57,525 nucleotides of DNA from Clostridia bacterium (GCA_045538335.1 JAZSRF010000082.1:1-57525), one strand, 5' to 3'. Shown: positions 3,629-18,871, counted from the stretch's first letter. Notes: generated by a model from the letters alone, not told the origin. Made by a program: numbers and translations.

Positions 3629-3746
3629 ACCACACTCCTATTTAATAAATAATATGAGATGATAAAAATATTATTACAATTGTTTTATTCTGATTTATAA
3701 ATAAGGTAACTTTAAGATTACTATTTGATTAAAAAATTAGAACTTA

Positions 3747-4037
3747 TTAAAATAATTTTGCTTTCCGATTAAAAATATGTAAAAGAAAAACTTGAAGTGA
3801 TGTTTTATCTACATCATATACAATTACATAATTTGCAACAGTTAATTTACATAAATTACTATTTTCAAATTTAGAATGTCTTTCAGGAAAATAAGATAAA
3901 GAAAATGCTGATTTAATGATTAAATTATATGTATTGAATGCTACTATAGGAGATTTGAGGAAGAAAAATATATGATAGAAAATATTTAATAGTTCTTCCT
4001 CAAATTTTTTAGATATATTTATTTTGTATTTTTCCAT
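3747..4037 (-). CDS. Type II toxin, RelE/ParE superfamily
   Basis: 96 aa. FPERH...KLTVANYVIVYDVD...VFLLHIFNRK pattern. Overlaps the upstream antitoxin ORF by 29 nt. Confidence 0.6.
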   Translation of the reverse strand: MEKYKINISKKFEEELLNIFYHIFFFLKSPIVAFNTYNLIIKSAFSLSYFPERHSKFENSNLCKLTVANYVIVYDVDKTSLQVFLLHIFNRKAKLF

Positions 4038-4380
4038 TTATATTATATTTTTCCTCCATTTCTGCGCAAAAGTCCTCAAGCGGACGATAACGTCCCTTTT
4101 CAATATCTTTTAATGCTTGGTCTATTTTTTCAAATACTGCTTTTTGAAAATCTTCAAAATTTTCATAACGCGCGTTAAAATGTTTAGCAACCAACCTATC
4201 TATTCTCACATCATCTGTTTCTCCATTATTAATCAACTCGTCATATGCTTCATTGCTTAATATAACCAAGTCATTTGCACCATTTTTAGTTATGTACATT
4301 GCTTCTTTTGTTTCGTGACAAATTTTAGAAATTTCGTTATAATTATTTCTTAAATCTGCACAAGGCCTTATTAATGCCAT
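4009..4380 (-). CDS. Type II antitoxin, Phd/YefM family
   Basis: N-terminal RPCADLRNNYNEISKICHETKEAMYITKNGANDLVILSNEAYDEL is typical of Phd/YefM. Confidence 0.65.
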   Translation of the reverse strand: MALIRPCADLRNNYNEISKICHETKEAMYITKNGANDLVILSNEAYDELINNGETDDVRIDRLVAKHFNARYENFEDFQKAVFEKIDQALKDIEKGRYRPLEDFCAEMEEKYNINGKIQNKYI

Positions 4381-4477
4381 AAAAACACCTCCAACTTTAC
4401 ATAGTCAAATTATATCATAATTACAATATGCCTGTAAGAAAATTCTTATAATTACATATTTTCCCACAGACATATTC

Positions 4478-6535
4478 TTACGTTCCAATATTTAATAATT
4501 GTTCGTTATATCTTCCAAACAATTCTTGTTTTAGTACTTTATTTTCAGCTAGTTTAAATTCAGGGTCGCTATTTATTATTTCTTTTGCAGCATCATTAGA
4601 AAGTTTTAATAGTTTAACATCAGTAAGTAAATTAGCAAGCTTAAATTCTGGTAGGCCATGTTGTCTTATTCCAAAGAAATCTCCCGGTCCACGAAGCTCT
4701 AGATCTTTTTCTGCTATTTCAAATCCATTATTAGATTTAACCATTATACCCAAACGTTCTCTGCATTTCTGAGACATGTTTTTTGTCTTAAGTATACAGA
4801 AAGATTCAAATGTACTTCTTCCAACTCTTCCTCTTAACTGATGAAGTGTAGCAAGACCAAATCTGTCTGCATCTTCTATTATCATAAGAGTTGCATTTGG
4901 AACATTCACCCCTACTTCTATTACAGTTGTGGATACAATAATTTGTGTTTTACCAGCTTTAAACGATTCCATTACCTCTTCTTTTTCTTTTTTCTTCATT
5001 TTGCCGTGTAAGAAACCAACCTCATATTCTGGAAATATCTCATTTTTGTATTTTTCATAAAGATTTGTTGCATCTGTTAAATCTAATTCTTCATTTTCTT
5101 CTATTAAAGGACATACAATATATGCTTGCCTGCCTTTATCTATTTCTTTACGAATAAAGTTATCTACTCTTTCCTCAAGTTTCTCATTTACCACATATGT
5201 TTTTATTGGTATTCTTCCTTTTGGAAGTTCATCAATAATACTCATGTCTAAGTCAGAATATACCATTAATGCAAGAGTTCTTGGGATTGGCGTTGCAGTC
5301 ATAACAAGCACATCCGTATTTTCACCTTTTGCGTTTAACTTCATTCTTTGTTTTACACCAAACCTATGTTGCTCGTCTGTTATAATTAAGCCCGCATTTT
5401 TAAATTCTACATTGTCTGTAACCAAAGCATTAGTTCCTATTAAAACATCAATTTCTCCCGTCTTTAATTTTTCTAAAATAATCTCCTTATTCTTTTTAGT
5501 AGTGCTACCCGTTAAAAGTTCTACTGTCATATTGAATTTAGAGAAATATTTTTTCAATTCTTCATAATGCTGTTTTGCAAGTATTGTTGTTGGTGCCATA
5601 AGTGCTGTTTGGTATCCGTTTTTTACAGCTACATACATAGCGGTTGCAGCAACTATGGTTTTACCACTACCAACGTCTCCTTGAACAAGTCTATTCATAG
5701 ACCTTGACGATGCCATATCTTTCATTATTTCATCAAGTACCTTTGCTTGGGCAGAAGTTAATTCAAAAGGAAGTATTTCTAAAAATTCATCATAACACGT
5801 ATCTTTAAATTCTATTCCTTTCTTTTCAGAAAAGTTTTGGTTACGCATAACAAGAAGTGCTAGTTGAAGCATAAATAGTTCTTCAAATATTAGTCTTTTA
5901 CGTGCCTCACTTATTGCTTCTAAACTAGAAGGTCTATGTATTTGTTCTAGTGCATAATTTATCTCACACAAACCATATTTTTTTCTGAGCTCTGTAGATA
6001 ATACCTCTGGCAAGGCATATTTTTTATCTAGCAGTTCAGATATAATTTTTGCAATATTGCCATTCTTAAGTCCTGCTGTTAAAGGATAAATTGGATACAG
6101 ACCTTTTATCTTGTCTATTTTTTCAACTTCAATAATTACTGGATTTACAATTTCAAAGTGCCCTTTGTTATCCTCCACTTTACCATAAAAAGCAAATTCT
6201 TTATCTATTTCTAATTTATCATTCATATACGCTTGGTTAAAAATGCTTACTTGTACCCTTGCTGTATTATCCGTAACGTAGAAATATGTTAAACTAAAAC
6301 CTCTACCTTTTCTTCTTGTTTGTGGTCTTGTACATATCTTAGCTACAAATACCACATTTTCACCAGCTATAAAATCTTGTATTTTCTTAATATTATTTCT
6401 ATCTTCATATTCTCTAGGAAAATGTGTTAGCAAATCATAGATAGTATGTATTCCTAGCTTTTCAAAGTGTTTTGCCCTAGTAGGACCAACACCTTTTAAA
6501 TATTGTACATTCTCATCTAACATTAATGATTTCAT
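4478..6535 (-). CDS. recG: ATP-dependent DNA helicase RecG
   Basis: 685 aa. Wedge/OB N-domain, SF2 helicase motifs (GDVGSGKT, DEQHRFG, TATPIPRT) and QLRGRVGR. Confidence 0.95.
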   Translation of the reverse strand: MKSLMLDENVQYLKGVGPTRAKHFEKLGIHTIYDLLTHFPREYEDRNNIKKIQDFIAGENVVFVAKICTRPQTRRKGRGFSLTYFYVTDNTARVQVSIFNQAYMNDKLEIDKEFAFYGKVEDNKGHFEIVNPVIIEVEKIDKIKGLYPIYPLTAGLKNGNIAKIISELLDKKYALPEVLSTELRKKYGLCEINYALEQIHRPSSLEAISEARKRLIFEELFMLQLALLVMRNQNFSEKKGIEFKDTCYDEFLEILPFELTSAQAKVLDEIMKDMASSRSMNRLVQGDVGSGKTIVAATAMYVAVKNGYQTALMAPTTILAKQHYEELKKYFSKFNMTVELLTGSTTKKNKEIILEKLKTGEIDVLIGTNALVTDNVEFKNAGLIITDEQHRFGVKQRMKLNAKGENTDVLVMTATPIPRTLALMVYSDLDMSIIDELPKGRIPIKTYVVNEKLEERVDNFIRKEIDKGRQAYIVCPLIEENEELDLTDATNLYEKYKNEIFPEYEVGFLHGKMKKKEKEEVMESFKAGKTQIIVSTTVIEVGVNVPNATLMIIEDADRFGLATLHQLRGRVGRSTFESFCILKTKNMSQKCRERLGIMVKSNNGFEIAEKDLELRGPGDFFGIRQHGLPEFKLANLLTDVKLLKLSNDAAKEIINSDPEFKLAENKVLKQELFGRYNEQLLNIGT

Positions 6536-6633
6536 ATAATCACCAGTGAAAGTATATCACGAAGATAATATGTTGTCAAGAAATATATAAACATTTGTTT
6601 GCTTTTTGTGCGGATAAAATATATCTTTACCAC

Positions 6634-6858
6634 TTAACTCATGTTATATATTTTAAATGTAACAAATACTAATACTATTCCACAATTATGCAAATCTTTC
6701 ATTACTTCTGTTTTCTTAAATCCTTTTTGTTTGTGCGTATAATCTACAGTTGTGTCTAAATTATAGGACGTTAATACAATATAAAATGCTCCTATTTCAA
6801 ATATACATATTGTGTTTTCATTATCTTCAAATACTTTATTAAACAATTCATAATACAT
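6634..6858 (-). CDS. Hypothetical 74-aa protein
   Basis: AGGAG-N7-ATG. No recognisable motif. Confidence 0.4.
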   Translation of the reverse strand: MYYELFNKVFEDNENTICIFEIGAFYIVLTSYNLDTTVDYTHKQKGFKKTEVMKDLHNCGIVLVFVTFKIYNMS

Positions 6859-7021
6859 AAAAAAACTCCTAGTAGAAGTACAGTAAACATAAAACTAAAT
6901 GTTTTTATGTATCACCATACTCTACTAAGAGTATACTCCTCTCCGTAATACGCTTTATCCTAAGCTTACCTCGCTACCATCTGCGCATACGTCCATTTAC
7001 TTGCACCGCTAGTGGCCAACG

Positions 7022-8503
7022 CTACTTCTTTATGTAAAGTGAGAAGCGGAAACCACAAGCGCTGTACGCGTAGTTAGAATTGTTAATGTGACGGTTCGAA
7101 ACTGGAGTCCAAGCACCAATTCCAGCGAATTGGCCTCCGCGAGGCACACGCTGGTTAGCGTGGCTGCCCTCCATTGTCCATTCATGCATATTTCCTGCCA
7201 TGTCATATATATTATTTACACTTGCTGCTTTTAGCGCACCTGTGGATAACGCCCAATACGTTCCGCTTGCTATTGCCGAACTCGATGTTGCTTCTTGGTA
7301 CGAACCTAGTGTTGAATTAGAATCAACTGCGTACTTTGCATCTTTATTTAAATCTCCTGCTGCTATTGCATGATCACTATAATTTCCATAACTTGTACTA
7401 TCTGCTACACTTGTTACCACATTTCCATTTCCATCTTTTGCTCCTACTTCTAACCACCATGCTAGTGTTCTATCCCACTGCACTCCATATGTGAGCGTTG
7501 ATACTACTCCATAATTTGTATTTGTTTTTGGATACATTCTTCTTGCTACTTCTACTGCTCCATTTGTATCTTCTGCCATAGTATTATTCCATGTCCATGG
7601 TATATATGTGTATGGTATTTTACCCATTACAGAATATACTTTTGTTCCTTCTTTTATTCCTGGTAAATCTGCAGCATTTCCTGCTTCTGTTCTTTGCGTA
7701 TCAATTCCGGCTTCATATCTTGCTATATAAAACCCTTCATATTCTTTTACACTTTCATACATTGCTTGTACTTCTGCTAGTGTTGTACTTGTCATATAAT
7801 TTTCATCTTGGGTAGCTAGCGGCATATTATTTGTATCCACCATTACTTCCCAGTATACGTTTTTTGTTCCTAGTGCATTGTAATTCCCATTTGCATCTAA
7901 AACTTCTGATGTTGTATTTTGAAAGTCTTTTCTTACAAACTTTGTTACAAACTCTTCTCTTGCCACTGGCCCCCATACATATTGATTTCTCGTTGTCATT
8001 GATGTATGATGTGTTTCACTACTTGGTATTTCTGTTTCATTTACATCTAATTCATATATTACAAGTCCACCATCTTTTGTATTTTCTCCCTCATATGGTG
8101 ATACTACAAATCCTTTTGGTATTGGCGCTCCATCTACTATAGCTACTACGTTTGCTTGCCAAGCCTCTGGTATTTTTGCTTTTAATTCTACTGTTACTCC
8201 ACTTGTTGTTACTTTTATTTCGTATTTCGTTACATCTACCTTGTTATCTTCTAATGCCTCATCTACTCTAGCTTTCAACTCTTCTTCTGTTCTTGCACCA
8301 CTCGTATAAGCATTTGCCCAACCTAGTTGTGCTAATTCTTTTACTGTAGCTAAATTTGTTTGTTCTACCGCTTCACCTGCTCTATTTATTATTCCACTAT
8401 TATTTAACGTTAAAACAATTGCTCCTGCTAGTATTACCATTACTATAATTGTTATTACTAGCACTATTAATGATATACCTCTTTTCTTTTGCATTTTATC
8501 CAC
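7022..8503 (-). CDS. Surface protein: pilin-like N-terminal anchor plus FGE-sulfatase/SUMF1 (C-type lectin fold) domain
   Basis: KKRG-ISLIVLVITIIVMVILAG N-terminus. C-terminal half has YIARYEAG, TYGVQWDRTLAWW, YDMAGNMHEWT, RGG...GFRF, all hallmarks of the FGE-sulfatase fold. The 3' end is much GC-richer than its surroundings. Confidence 0.8.
   Translation of the reverse strand: MDKMQKKRGISLIVLVITIIVMVILAGAIVLTLNNSGIINRAGEAVEQTNLATVKELAQLGWANAYTSGARTEEELKARVDEALEDNKVDVTKYEIKVTTSGVTVELKAKIPEAWQANVVAIVDGAPIPKGFVVSPYEGENTKDGGLVIYELDVNETEIPSSETHHTSMTTRNQYVWGPVAREEFVTKFVRKDFQNTTSEVLDANGNYNALGTKNVYWEVMVDTNNMPLATQDENYMTSTTLAEVQAMYESVKEYEGFYIARYEAGIDTQRTEAGNAADLPGIKEGTKVYSVMGKIPYTYIPWTWNNTMAEDTNGAVEVARRMYPKTNTNYGVVSTLTYGVQWDRTLAWWLEVGAKDGNGNVVTSVADSTSYGNYSDHAIAAGDLNKDAKYAVDSNSTLGSYQEATSSSAIASGTYWALSTGALKAASVNNIYDMAGNMHEWTMEGSHANQRVPRGGQFAGIGAWTPVSNRHINNSNYAYSACGFRFSLYIKK
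7025..7175 (-). other. Candidate DGR variable region (VR) at the 3' end of the CLec gene
   Basis: Encodes RGG-QFAGIGAWTPV-SNR-HINNSNYAYSAC-GFR. In the stretch cac att aac aat tct aac tac gcg tac agc gct tgt, 11 of 12 codons are NNY. Local GC spike. No TR or RT in the window. Confidence 0.45.
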
Positions 8504-8619: not shown

Positions 8620-8682
8620 TTACATAAAAGTTGTGTGTGTGTGTGTGTGTGTTACAGTCCCAAGGCTTCTAGCGTTTTTCAT
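8620..8682 (-). CDS. Candidate leader mini-ORF, 20 codons: MKNARSLGTV(TH)3T-TFM
   Basis: GAGGGAG-N10-ATG(8682). Reads through (CA)10 and stops at TAA 8620..8622. Hypothetical. Confidence 0.3.
   Translation of the reverse strand: MKNARSLGTVTHTHTHTTFM
8632..8651. repeat. (TG)10 dinucleotide microsatellite
   Basis: Counted directly: 10 uninterrupted TG units. Confidence 0.97.
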
Positions 8683-8832: not shown

Positions 8833-10842
8833 TTACTCAGCTAAGAACTTATCCAGTTCATCCGAAGTAGCAATCTTTTTCTTTATAAGGTACTTCGCCA
8901 TTTGGTCTATTTCTCTCCAATGGGCATCTACAAATTCCTCTGTCTTGTTATATACCTTGGTGATTAGGTTGTTTACTTTTTCTTGAACTAAATTTGCCAT
9001 TTTTTCAGTTAACATACCATCATCAAGATATACATGCCTAAATGTTCCTTCGTCTAAGCCCAGTTGAATAATCGCCTTTGTAGCAACCTCTTTAGCACGC
9101 TTCAAATCACTTCTTGCACCACTGTCAAGAGCTTTGGTTACTTTAAATTGTGCTACTCTTCCTGCAAGCAAAGACATAATATTTGCTTCTATATATTCCA
9201 TATCCAACAGTACAAAAGAATCTTTTTCTTCGAGCATATTTGCTCCTAAAGAATGCTCTGTAGGAATTATAGAAACAGCGGTAACATTAACTGCTTTGTT
9301 TTCCTTAGTAAGCCTTGTTGCAACATAATGACCTATTTCATGATAGGCAATTCCCACAACGTCTTGTTTGCTAAATTTATCGAACTTTTCGAAGAATTCC
9401 TCATACACTTTGTGAACATGAGCTTTTGTAACTTTCTTACCTCCCAGGCGTTTTGTCATCGCCATGCTTCTGTCACACAAGTCAAGGGTTTTATCAGGAT
9501 TTGCGTTTTCCCAACTAAAGCATGCAGAACACACGATTATATAATCCACCAAATTATTTGGCATCTTTACTTCGTGATACTTTTCTAATGCTTTAAGCTT
9601 GGCTTTTATCATAGGTTTAACTTCTGTAATCTTAGGCTCGTTTACAAAAACCACTTCAAAACGTCTTTTGAAAGCTCCATCACTAGAAACGATAGTATCA
9701 TATTCCTTAACTGTGGTAGCACCCAAAAATGTGGCATCATCTCTAGAAAGAATAGGTTTAAGCGAACCACTAAGGTCATTCGCGTTGCCCTCCGAACTAC
9801 CTGCACCAAGCATCTGATGCATTTCATCTACAAAGAGAATAATCTTGTGAGTTCCTTCTAAAAACTTCTTTAAGACAGATACCTTCGCCTCAAATTCACC
9901 ACGATACTTTGTACCAGCTACCATAGAGGTAACATCCAAAGACAAAACTGTATATCCAATAAATTCTTTTGGACAAGTTTCATTTACAATTTCTTGAGTA
10001 ATTGCCTCTGCAATAGCGGTTTTACCAGCACCTGCAGGTCCAATCAAAACGCAGTTTCTTTTTGTTTTCTTAGAGAAAACATTAAATACTTTGTCCTTTT
10101 CTTTATCTCTTCCAAGAATTGCAATCTCTTGCCCCTTAGTGTACTTGTTATTTAAAATTTCTAAGCAATTTTCAAGAGCGGCAGGAATAACTATAGGCAT
10201 ATTATCATCAGAAATATCATCTACAATATTTGCAGTAAATTTCAAGCTTTGCAAGAAATTATCCATGTCTATTTCAAAGGCTTGCATAAGATTACTAATA
10301 AATCTATATGCACTCGTTTCTTTATTTTGCAAAATACTATAGACGATAACATCCAAGTCAATATAATCTAGCTTCATCGCCTTGCATCTAAGATATGCCT
10401 CTTGACAAGCAAGTTCAAGCTTGTCCGAATAAGCGGGAACCATAATCTCTAAGTTGCCTTCGACATCTTCAGCCCACCCCATAACATCTGCAAGCACATC
10501 TATAACTTTTGCTGCGAACTCATCTTCAGCATCTTCTTCGGAAGTTTCACCTACGTCTTCTTGTTCATCTACTTGCTCTTCAAAAACTTTTTCCGCCGCT
10601 TTCTCACCAAAGATACTAGCAAACACTTCTTTATCTTCAAGCATACTGTCTATACTAGGAAGAAGTTGCATACCCATGTCTCCAATTGCTTTAAATATTC
10701 CAGAATCCGGAATATTCATTGCCGCAAAAAGGACATATGCACTTCTTACTTTTTCATCATCAAACCGCCACGCAATATTGGTAGCAAGTTCGAATGCCTT
10801 TCTCGCATTCGCGTTAACATTTGCGTTTTTCCATTCATTCAT
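8833..10842 (-). CDS. Soluble fusion protein: Clp N-domain repeats, Clp-type AAA+ (D1-like) ATPase and FtsH-type M41 zinc protease domain
   Basis: N-terminal Clp_N-like repeats split by an acidic insert (EEQVDEQEDVGETSEEDAEDE). Walker A GPAGAGKT, Walker B ILFVDEMH, AGTKYRGEFE and FKRRFE as in ClpA/B/C D1. C-terminal HEIGH, LLAGRVAQ and GARSDLKRA as in peptidase M41. No TM segment. AAGGAG SD. Confidence 0.8.
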   Translation of the reverse strand: MNEWKNANVNANARKAFELATNIAWRFDDEKVRSAYVLFAAMNIPDSGIFKAIGDMGMQLLPSIDSMLEDKEVFASIFGEKAAEKVFEEQVDEQEDVGETSEEDAEDEFAAKVIDVLADVMGWAEDVEGNLEIMVPAYSDKLELACQEAYLRCKAMKLDYIDLDVIVYSILQNKETSAYRFISNLMQAFEIDMDNFLQSLKFTANIVDDISDDNMPIVIPAALENCLEILNNKYTKGQEIAILGRDKEKDKVFNVFSKKTKRNCVLIGPAGAGKTAIAEAITQEIVNETCPKEFIGYTVLSLDVTSMVAGTKYRGEFEAKVSVLKKFLEGTHKIILFVDEMHQMLGAGSSEGNANDLSGSLKPILSRDDATFLGATTVKEYDTIVSSDGAFKRRFEVVFVNEPKITEVKPMIKAKLKALEKYHEVKMPNNLVDYIIVCSACFSWENANPDKTLDLCDRSMAMTKRLGGKKVTKAHVHKVYEEFFEKFDKFSKQDVVGIAYHEIGHYVATRLTKENKAVNVTAVSIIPTEHSLGANMLEEKDSFVLLDMEYIEANIMSLLAGRVAQFKVTKALDSGARSDLKRAKEVATKAIIQLGLDEGTFRHVYLDDGMLTEKMANLVQEKVNNLITKVYNKTEEFVDAHWREIDQMAKYLIKKKIATSDELDKFLAE

Positions 10843-17777: not shown

Positions 17778-18626
17778 CTATTTAAGTTCTAATATTTTTT
17801 CTACAGTAAGCCCTGTTGCTTTAGATATAATCTCTACATCTAGTCCCATATCTAGCATATTTTTAGCAGTTTGTATATTTGCTTTTTCTTCACCTTGTTT
17901 CTGGCCTTTCTCTAAAGCAAAATCTAGTGCTGCAGCTTCATCTCTTATGTATTTTTCTTTTAGTTCTGCTATTCTTCTTAATTTATAATCACCACTTACT
18001 TGCTTTAGTTCTTCACGTGCGTTTTTTATATTCTCATTTTTATCCATAATATTACAAACCTCCTTGCTATTCGGATTATCCAAAAACATCATCCATTGGC
18101 TTATTGTATTATTATTGTTCTTTTCATATATTCTTTTTGCTTTTGGTAATTCTATTATAACAAGTTCAAATCTATCTGTCAATATTTTACCACCAGTTGT
18201 GTTATCTCTCATCTGCCATCTTACATTTAAATCCTCTACTCCTTTTAATGCTTCTACTTCATGGTCAACTATAACTATACTTATTGTTTTATGTATTTTC
18301 TTGTATTTATCACCCCTTTCTAATTGCCTTGAATATGCGTCTGAAAGATAATATAAAAATCTTTCATTTTCATATTGATACTGTTTTAATTGTATTTCCA
18401 CATTACAATATGTTCCGTCTTCAAATCTTACTCTTAAATCCATTACACCTAGTTTTTCATTTGCTGCTACAATATCTAAGTGTCTATCTAAGTTTTCTAT
18501 TATTTTCACTTTTGTTTCTAAAATGTCACTTAACATCGCTTCTAAAAGTGTATTGTTTGCTCTTCTAAACAATGCATGAAATACGACATCTATCTTTGGC
18601 CTTAATAACAACTCATTTCGACTCAT
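17778..18626 (-). CDS. Rpn/YhgA-like PD-(D/E)XK nuclease (putative transposase family)
   Basis: LRPKIDVVFHALF, GVMDLRVRFEDGTYCNVEIQ (D...E.Q nuclease core), FLYYLSDAYSRQL. Start at MSRNEL with AAGGAG SD. Confidence 0.7.
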   Translation of the reverse strand: MSRNELLLRPKIDVVFHALFRRANNTLLEAMLSDILETKVKIIENLDRHLDIVAANEKLGVMDLRVRFEDGTYCNVEIQLKQYQYENERFLYYLSDAYSRQLERGDKYKKIHKTISIVIVDHEVEALKGVEDLNVRWQMRDNTTGGKILTDRFELVIIELPKAKRIYEKNNNNTISQWMMFLDNPNSKEVCNIMDKNENIKNAREELKQVSGDYKLRRIAELKEKYIRDEAAALDFALEKGQKQGEEKANIQTAKNMLDMGLDVEIISKATGLTVEKILELK

Positions 18627-18871
18627 AAAAAATCTCTCCTTATTACTTTGTAACAAGGCCTTGTATATATTTGTTTATTAATTTCTTTTGGGTAAATTAG
18701 ACAAATAATACGAGTGCATTATTTACTAATAAGAAATAAAAATCTAGATTGAATGTAATTAATTACTTCTGTTTTTGAAAAAATTCATATTAATATGTTA
18801 CATATAAAATATCACGGAAAACAAGCAATGTCAAGAAAAATCTTACGACAGACTTCGACAAAAATGAGTGT

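Follow-up and report, generated by a model that had tools for sequence, protein, structure and literature searches.

The C-terminal block of a gene in 57,525 nucleotides of DNA from a Clostridia bacterium (GCA_045538335.1, contig JAZSRF010000082.1; the whole stretch is called the window here) is a genuine variable region (VR) of a diversity-generating retroelement (DGR). This VR was written by a DGR whose cis core has since been deleted from the locus, and most likely it is now frozen and drifting by ordinary mutation. The following features are needed for the argument.

7022..8503, minus strand: target gene, an ORF of 493 aa with a hydrophobic N-terminal helix and a C-terminal FGE-sulfatase/C-type-lectin-fold domain
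7022..7037, minus strand: last five codons (YIKK region) and stop, conserved in the family, yet outside the homology to template repeats
7038..7168, minus strand: VR, 131 nt (GGC ... TCA CT), in gapless alignment with the template repeats (TRs) of related DGRs
6859..7021, minus strand: conserved G+C-rich noncoding region from the target stop to the MSL start codon, common to loci L127, L125, L208 and L209
6634..6858, minus strand: MutS-like (MSL) fragment, 74 aa (tblastn with the L127 MSL, E = 1e-16)
6602..6682, minus strand: deletion scar, about 80 nt in place of about 2.27 kb of L208
4478..6535, minus strand: recG, the synteny anchor, sharing 90% (aa) and 82.7% (nt) identity with the L208 RecG

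The variable region and its protein

The block differs from the remainder of its own gene in nearly every aspect of composition. NNY codons account for 0.77 of the 43 VR codons versus 0.29 of the other 433 (Fisher p = 1.5e-9), the third-position C/(C+T) ratio within NNY codons is 0.52 versus 0.12 (p = 3e-6), and GC3 is 0.53 versus 0.16. The VR at L127, which belongs to a demonstrated TR/VR pair, has 0.86 NNY codons and a GC3 of 0.65. Coding-strand A makes up 24% of the last 160 nt of the gene versus 43% of the remainder, and G+C, taken in 100-nt windows, is 0.47-0.56 across 6950..7200 versus 0.31 in the whole window. The initial annotation had singled out the block by its codons, and its counts were exact on recounting: 11 of the 12 codons in the cac..tgt stretch and 7 of the 11 between GG and SNR are NNY. 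The G+C-rich block that it had seen by eye is also real, at about 50% G+C in a contig of 31%.

The VR aligns codon for codon, and with no gaps, with the TRs of three related loci, L127, L208 and L209. Its invariant codons (CGT, CGC GGA GGC, TTC, GGT, CCA GTT TCN, CGT, GCG and GGN TTC CGC) are the non-A codons of the TRs. At codon positions 1 and 2, the VR is identical at 39 of the 44 sites where the TR has no A (89%) versus 24 of the 47 sites where it has one (51%; p = 1e-4), and 118 of the 131 VR positions are either identical to at least one of the three TRs or opposite one of its adenines. The homology between TR and VR stops at ...TCACT, as seen in L127, which is 16 nt before the target stop codon. 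This alignment, and a predicted fold whose best match in the PDB is the variable protein TvpA, confirm the proposal that the C-terminus is a DGR variable region. Thus, homology to a demonstrated TR/VR pair, the footprint of adenine mutagenesis and a position at the C-terminal end of the fold are all found together in this protein. The reverse transcriptase (RT) and Avd, joined in this lineage by the MutS-like MSL, would have copied the RNA of an AAY-rich TR; misincorporation would have occurred at the TR adenines, and the resulting cDNA would have replaced the VR (mutagenic retrohoming). Such retrohoming accounts for the abundance of NNY codons in the VR, its depletion in A and its raised G+C.

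More than 1,156 homologs of the target protein were found, all of them from uncultured Clostridia MAGs and metagenomes, and several paralogs occur per genome. Their C-termini have a conserved ...NNIYDMAGNxxEWTMEG, followed by about 36 hypervariable residues on a fixed scaffold, xxxxRxxRGGxFxxxGxxxPVxxRxxxxPxxAxxxx, and then by a conserved GFRxxLYIKK; the VR differs in length between members. The residues K, Q, E, W and M are those that NNY codons cannot encode. Family-wide, these five residues make up 5.5% of the VRs versus 20.8% of the protein bodies, and they are absent altogether from the VRs of 32 of 112 homologs. In some pairs, the bodies are 90-93% identical and the VRs just 43-49%. The 90%-identity cluster of the target protein has a single member, and its next relative, P0002, is 74% identical.

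One paralog, the 489-aa P0009 (L001, L002 and L003), recurs unchanged, VR included, on 7 contigs that come from at least three JGI metagenomes. No cassette lies within 10 kb of it, its stop codon is followed by an ordinary terminator, and its VR is clearly an invariant example within the family.

The C-terminal end of the 493-aa target protein reads RGGQFAGIGAWTPVSNRHINNSNYAYSACGFRFSLYIKK, followed by the stop. The Pfam FGE-sulfatase match to this protein is weak (E = 1e-3, under the curated cutoff). A family profile built from 60 sequences was used both for a structure-profile search and for an AF2 model. The profile matches pFGE (1y4j) across the last ~60 residues (E = 1.1e-5), and the model made from the family alignment has a pLDDT of 90.3. 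Its top PDB match in Foldseek is TvpA (2y3c), the DGR variable protein of Treponema (E = 7.9e-6), followed by PorK, FGE, EgtB and the Thermus DGR variable protein TaqVP. In the model, the VR forms the C-terminal end of a domain with the C-type-lectin/FGE-sulfatase fold, where it is predicted to encode the ligand-binding face of a surface protein.

The same protein had been described as pilin-anchored, a label that finds no HMM support. The prepilin cleavage/methylation motif (G-F-T-L-x-E) is absent from the protein according to Pfam and NCBIfam, and the N-terminus reads KRG-ISLIV, with Val in the Glu5 position of that motif. The sole pointer is a pilin-like helix of about 60 residues (positions 5-64) predicted in the AF2 model. 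Therefore, we regard the label as describing only a resemblance to pilins.

The region upstream of the target gene contains a small leader ORF (8620..8682, minus strand) of 20 codons, MKNARSLGTVTHTHTHTTFM followed by a stop, which has its own Shine-Dalgarno and a (CA)10 repeat inside it at 8632..8651. A hairpin with a T-run (CACTACAGAGTTGTGGCGTTTTTTGCG) comes after the leader ORF and before the target start codon. The same leader ORF with its flanks precedes the paralog P0008 (L004), where the repeat is (AC)12 instead of (AC)10, whereas neither this leader ORF nor its flanks precede the targets of L127 and L001. From its sequence, the (CA)n leader looks like a putative repeat-length-dependent attenuator or phase switch.

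Complete cassettes in relatives and the missing core

Complete DGR cassettes are present in related Clostridia MAGs, with targets that are 56-68% identical to the window protein. Their order is the target, the MutS-like MSL, Avd, RT, the TR with an RT-14 RNA and a small ORF, and such MSL-type cassettes were found at L127, L208 and L209-L211. L127, in MAG GCA_045652705.1, was found by a search with the MutS-like ORF of L125. There, the target P0007, which shares 68% identity with the window protein, is followed by 278 noncoding nt and then by MSL, Avd, RT and TR. Its MutS_I, bAvd and RVT_1 domains each score above the Pfam cutoff, the Avd is also recognised by NCBIfam, and the RT has the motifs IGNYTSQ (IGxxxSQ) and YMDD. 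An Rfam RT-14 RNA, a motif associated with RTs, lies directly 3' of the TR (61.8 bits, over the gathering score). Within the TR-homologous stretch, the L127 TR and VR have 21 differences, all of them at adenines; their alignment extends to 136 nt and includes one non-A difference, just beyond that stretch.

L208 (GCA_045604405.1) was reached through a search for RT homologs. Its gene order is target, MSL, Avd, RT, TR, ORF83, RecG, DUF3792, SpoIVB ... PNP. Most RT relatives among metagenome contigs are distant (35-40% identity), and further TRs of the family were obtained only from L128 and L129.

Two other aspects of these cassettes deserve mention. The VRs of L208 (1259..1398, TR 3717..3850) and L209 (6752..6891, TR 9060..9200) differ from their own adjacent TRs by a one-codon indel and several non-A mismatches; either homing is rare or the assemblies are a consensus of mixed populations. 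In addition, an ORF of about 83-85 aa is conserved after the TR and RT-14 RNA (L127 12379..12636, L208 4039..4290, L209 9425..9676); it is present in every complete cassette of the lineage and missing from the window. The L127 copy has a weak Pfam OB-fold match (E = 4.5e-4, under the cutoff), and the ORF could represent an additional accessory gene of DGRs, hitherto undescribed, whose product perhaps binds ssDNA or RNA.

The initial annotation had reported that no RT, TR or Avd was nearby, and this holds for the 57.5 kb. A second copy of the block was found in the window neither by blastn (word size 7) nor by an ungapped scan in which any mismatch was allowed opposite an A in the other copy. 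Searches with the L127 and L125 RT and Avd (tblastn) gave no match at E<=0.3 anywhere in the window, and Pfam detected neither an RT nor an Avd among the 20 window ORFs tested. Thus, the locus lacks the TR, RT and Avd that would be expected of an active DGR target in the strict sense. The intact MSL, avd, RT and TR cassette is not at this locus either, which retains a 74-aa MSL fragment.

This fragment, which had been overlooked, adjoins the target directly downstream. It spans residues 1-150 of the L127 MSL with 76 gap positions, and two stretches of about 49 and 27 aa are missing from its interior; the intact MSL homologs exceed the Pfam MutS_I cutoff. Beyond it, the DUF3792, SpoIVB and PNP genes downstream of recG are collinear between the window and L208, and by gene order and sequence the window is the syntenic ortholog of this complete DGR locus. 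In the blastn map, window 6720..6683 corresponds to L208 2039..2076 and window 6601..4476 to L208 4346..6473. What the window does not have is L208 2077..4345, where the 3' end of MSL, Avd, RT, TR and ORF83 are located, and therefore the cis DGR core has been deleted. The locus formerly bore the whole cassette, namely the target, MSL, Avd, RT, the TR with its RT-14 RNA and the small ORF, until a deletion of about 2.3 kb, running from mid-MSL to a point shortly upstream of recG, orphaned the target. An intermediate state exists at L125, where a MutS_I-domain ORF and a bAvd-like ORF come after the target; target, MSL and Avd are kept there, and RT and TR are gone. The idea of a remote DGR target is therefore only partly right: the gene is a DGR target, but its orthology to L208, the deleted core and the leftover MSL fragment argue that it was not always remote. 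It is an orphaned cis target.

Some other features of the window lie outside this comparison. The ~800 nt between recG and DUF3792 (3680..4476) have no counterpart in L208, where the gap is about 100 nt. They contain two small, overlapping ORFs on the minus strand (3747..4037 and 4009..4380) that, by eye, look like a putative pair of a Phd/YefM-type antitoxin and a RelE/ParE-type toxin. A PD-(D/E)XK family transposase (17778..18656, minus strand; Pfam PDDEXK_2, E = 1.8e-37) sits among housekeeping genes.

The noncoding DNA 3' of the target had been taken, for about 80 nt past the stop codon, as part of the retrohoming cassette. The 120 nt past the stop are indeed 44% G+C. However, the TR homology ends before the stop codon, and so this G+C-rich DNA is not TR-derived; it is a separate conserved noncoding element, with 82% nucleotide identity between window 6942..6772 and L208 1589..1759. 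In BPP-1 and Legionella, the stop codon of the target is immediately followed by a hairpin or cruciform. At this position, no consistent covarying stem was found by RNAalifold (three loci) or by eye (six loci), and the window has the most mismatches in the candidate hairpin among the loci compared. A different, large hairpin with arms of 23-29 nt occurs in the spacer between the target and MSL at L127 (9831..9916), L125 (1597..1682) and L208 (1504..1587), and its arms differ compensatorily between the loci (GGTGCGTTAT/ATAACGCACC, GGCAATTGT/ACAATTGCC and GGCGTGTTAT/ATAACGCGCC). This hairpin is optional because neither the window nor L209, a complete cassette, has it. We also considered the gap of about 118 nt in the window spacer as a sign of decay; this was rejected because the complete L209 is without the same hairpin insert.

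Frozen or still rewritten

Three explanations of the block need to be weighed. The least probable by far is that it is an ordinary fast-evolving lectin loop under diversifying selection, with no DGR involved and a composition that only resembles that of a VR. The missing TR and RT, the FGE-sulfatase match under the Pfam cutoff and the variable VR lengths in the family would all suit this explanation. However, selection on the protein would not yield a third-position C/(C+T) ratio so far from that of the gene remainder, and the block has gapless codon-level homology to real TRs, next to an MSL remnant and at a site where L208 has a complete DGR in synteny. A non-DGR origin is effectively refuted by the L127 TR/VR pair, the MSL remnant, the codon usage and the L208 synteny.

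A more serious possibility, although we consider it doubtful, is that the target is a live remote one: an intact DGR elsewhere in the genome would supply the RT, Avd, MSL and a compatible TR, and the VR would still be rewritten. DGRs are able to work in trans and to reach targets at a distance (Wu et al. 2018, PMC5758913). The third-position C and GC3 of the VR are far off the equilibrium of the genome, and neither the VR scaffold (RGG, PV, NR, GFR) nor the 3' noncoding element shows damage, as in a site that is still recognisable. Furthermore, P0002 and a DGR RT (P0127) are each on a 9,130-nt NCBI contig, probably the same one, and the assembly of the window may thus also contain an intact paralogous DGR. 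If the target were live, the VR and the (CA)n leader together would give switching plus hypervariation, as the initial annotation had imagined. A more specific version, in which this second MSL-type DGR, possibly that of P0002/P0127, still rewrites the VR in trans, is slightly more doubtful again. It would imply a network with one engine and many lectin targets, built by cassette duplication and then loss of the redundant RT cores, in which the (CA)n leader-peptide switch additionally gates each surface lectin target.

Several results speak against a live target. There is no TR within the 57.5 kb, and at 13 positions the VR is incompatible with each of the family TRs aligned (L127, L208 and L209). 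Six of the 13 are third-position Y-to-R changes (CAG, GTG, CAA, GGA, TGG and TCG) where the TRs have C or T; the scaffold Pro codon in the window reads TCT. GCA_045652705.1 offers a direct comparison, in that it has four known paralogs of the family and only the one adjacent to the cassette matches the TR. Each of the three cassette-less paralogs has 20 non-A mismatches to the only TR detected, and one also has an indel. Nevertheless L004, the only one of the three tested for codon usage, has 0.81 NNY codons and a GC3 of 0.53; since a mismatched paralog keeps the codon signature, the VR footprint evidently outlasts the activity. The invariant VR of P0009 also points towards freezing, as do the non-A mismatches of the L208 and L209 VRs to their own TRs. 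With regard to P0002, its sequence after GFR is SAL versus FSL in the window, at the point where the TR/VR homology ends, and Tyr codons (TAY) of P0002 sit opposite CAG and GGA in the window. Therefore, it is unlikely that the two share an AAY-type TR.

Hence, a frozen VR is favoured over a live trans target, and we infer the freezing from the observations above. The 13 positions are not a simple measure of drift. The 5' part of the L128 TR includes GAG, ATG and ATA codons, and because the lost TR of the window may likewise have differed from the three TRs, some of the 13 may represent TR divergence. Dating the freezing by the non-NNY codons was considered and dropped, as heterologous TRs cannot separate TR divergence from VR drift.

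A TR was also sought with a degenerate pattern for the VR in which the third codon positions are fixed and each other position is the VR base or A. The scans gave 0 matches in viral, genome and metagenome contigs; as they missed the window's own VR too, they are uninformative about the TR.

The family as a whole consists of more than 1,100 membrane-anchored lectin-fold proteins of uncultured gut or rumen-type Clostridia, and the loci read so far range from an intact cassette via partly decayed ones to a bare target. It looks like a natural series for studying the duplication and decay of DGR cassettes. The series also shows the long persistence of an NNY and G+C-rich VR footprint once hypermutation stops. 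The window target confirms that a DGR variable region can be recognised from its codon texture alone. At the same time, the inference that the absence of a nearby RT means a remote target is corrected here, as this target lost its RT, Avd and TR by a deletion at its own locus.

Relation to known DGRs

The MSL is a DGR accessory gene that is present in 16 DGRs, always with avd, and defines Architecture D, which includes the DGR of Legionella (Wu et al. 2018, Nucleic Acids Res 46:11, PMC5758913). L127, L208 and L209 resemble this architecture in having a target with a CLec-type C-terminal VR, a small MutS-like gene, avd, a DGR-type RT and an AAY-rich TR. The window keeps the target with its VR scaffold and 3' noncoding DNA, as well as the 5' portion of MSL; it departs from Architecture D in that Avd, RT, TR and the RT-14 RNA are deleted. 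The lineage to which it belongs is also unlike Architecture D in that the TR comes after the RT, with the conserved ORF of about 83 aa behind it.

The DGR of Treponema denticola has multiple remote targets and so provides a precedent for VRs distant from the RT (PMC5758913). The window protein resembles TvpA in its predicted FGE-type C-type-lectin fold and in having the VR at the extreme C-terminus, although the two are just 13% identical in sequence. Unlike the remote VRs of Treponema, which match their TR save for differences at A only, the cassette-less paralogs of GCA_045652705.1 have their 20 non-A mismatches each.

Bordetella phage BPP-1, with its target Mtd, is the prototype of adenine-specific mutagenic retrohoming, in which an Avd-assisted transfer from the TR diversifies AAY codons in a C-terminal CLec VR. 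The same mechanism would have produced the VR in the window. The differences are that the window system is chromosomal and not part of a phage, that it has the MSL accessory gene, that its core was lost at the locus and that its target has an N-terminal transmembrane or pilin-like helix. By analogy, the system in the window probably works, or worked, like the DGRs of BPP-1, Legionella and Treponema, and the finding leaves the known DGR mechanism unchanged. In conclusion, the target is a standard CLec-type DGR target of the MSL-type (Architecture D) lineage, caught after the loss of its own core.
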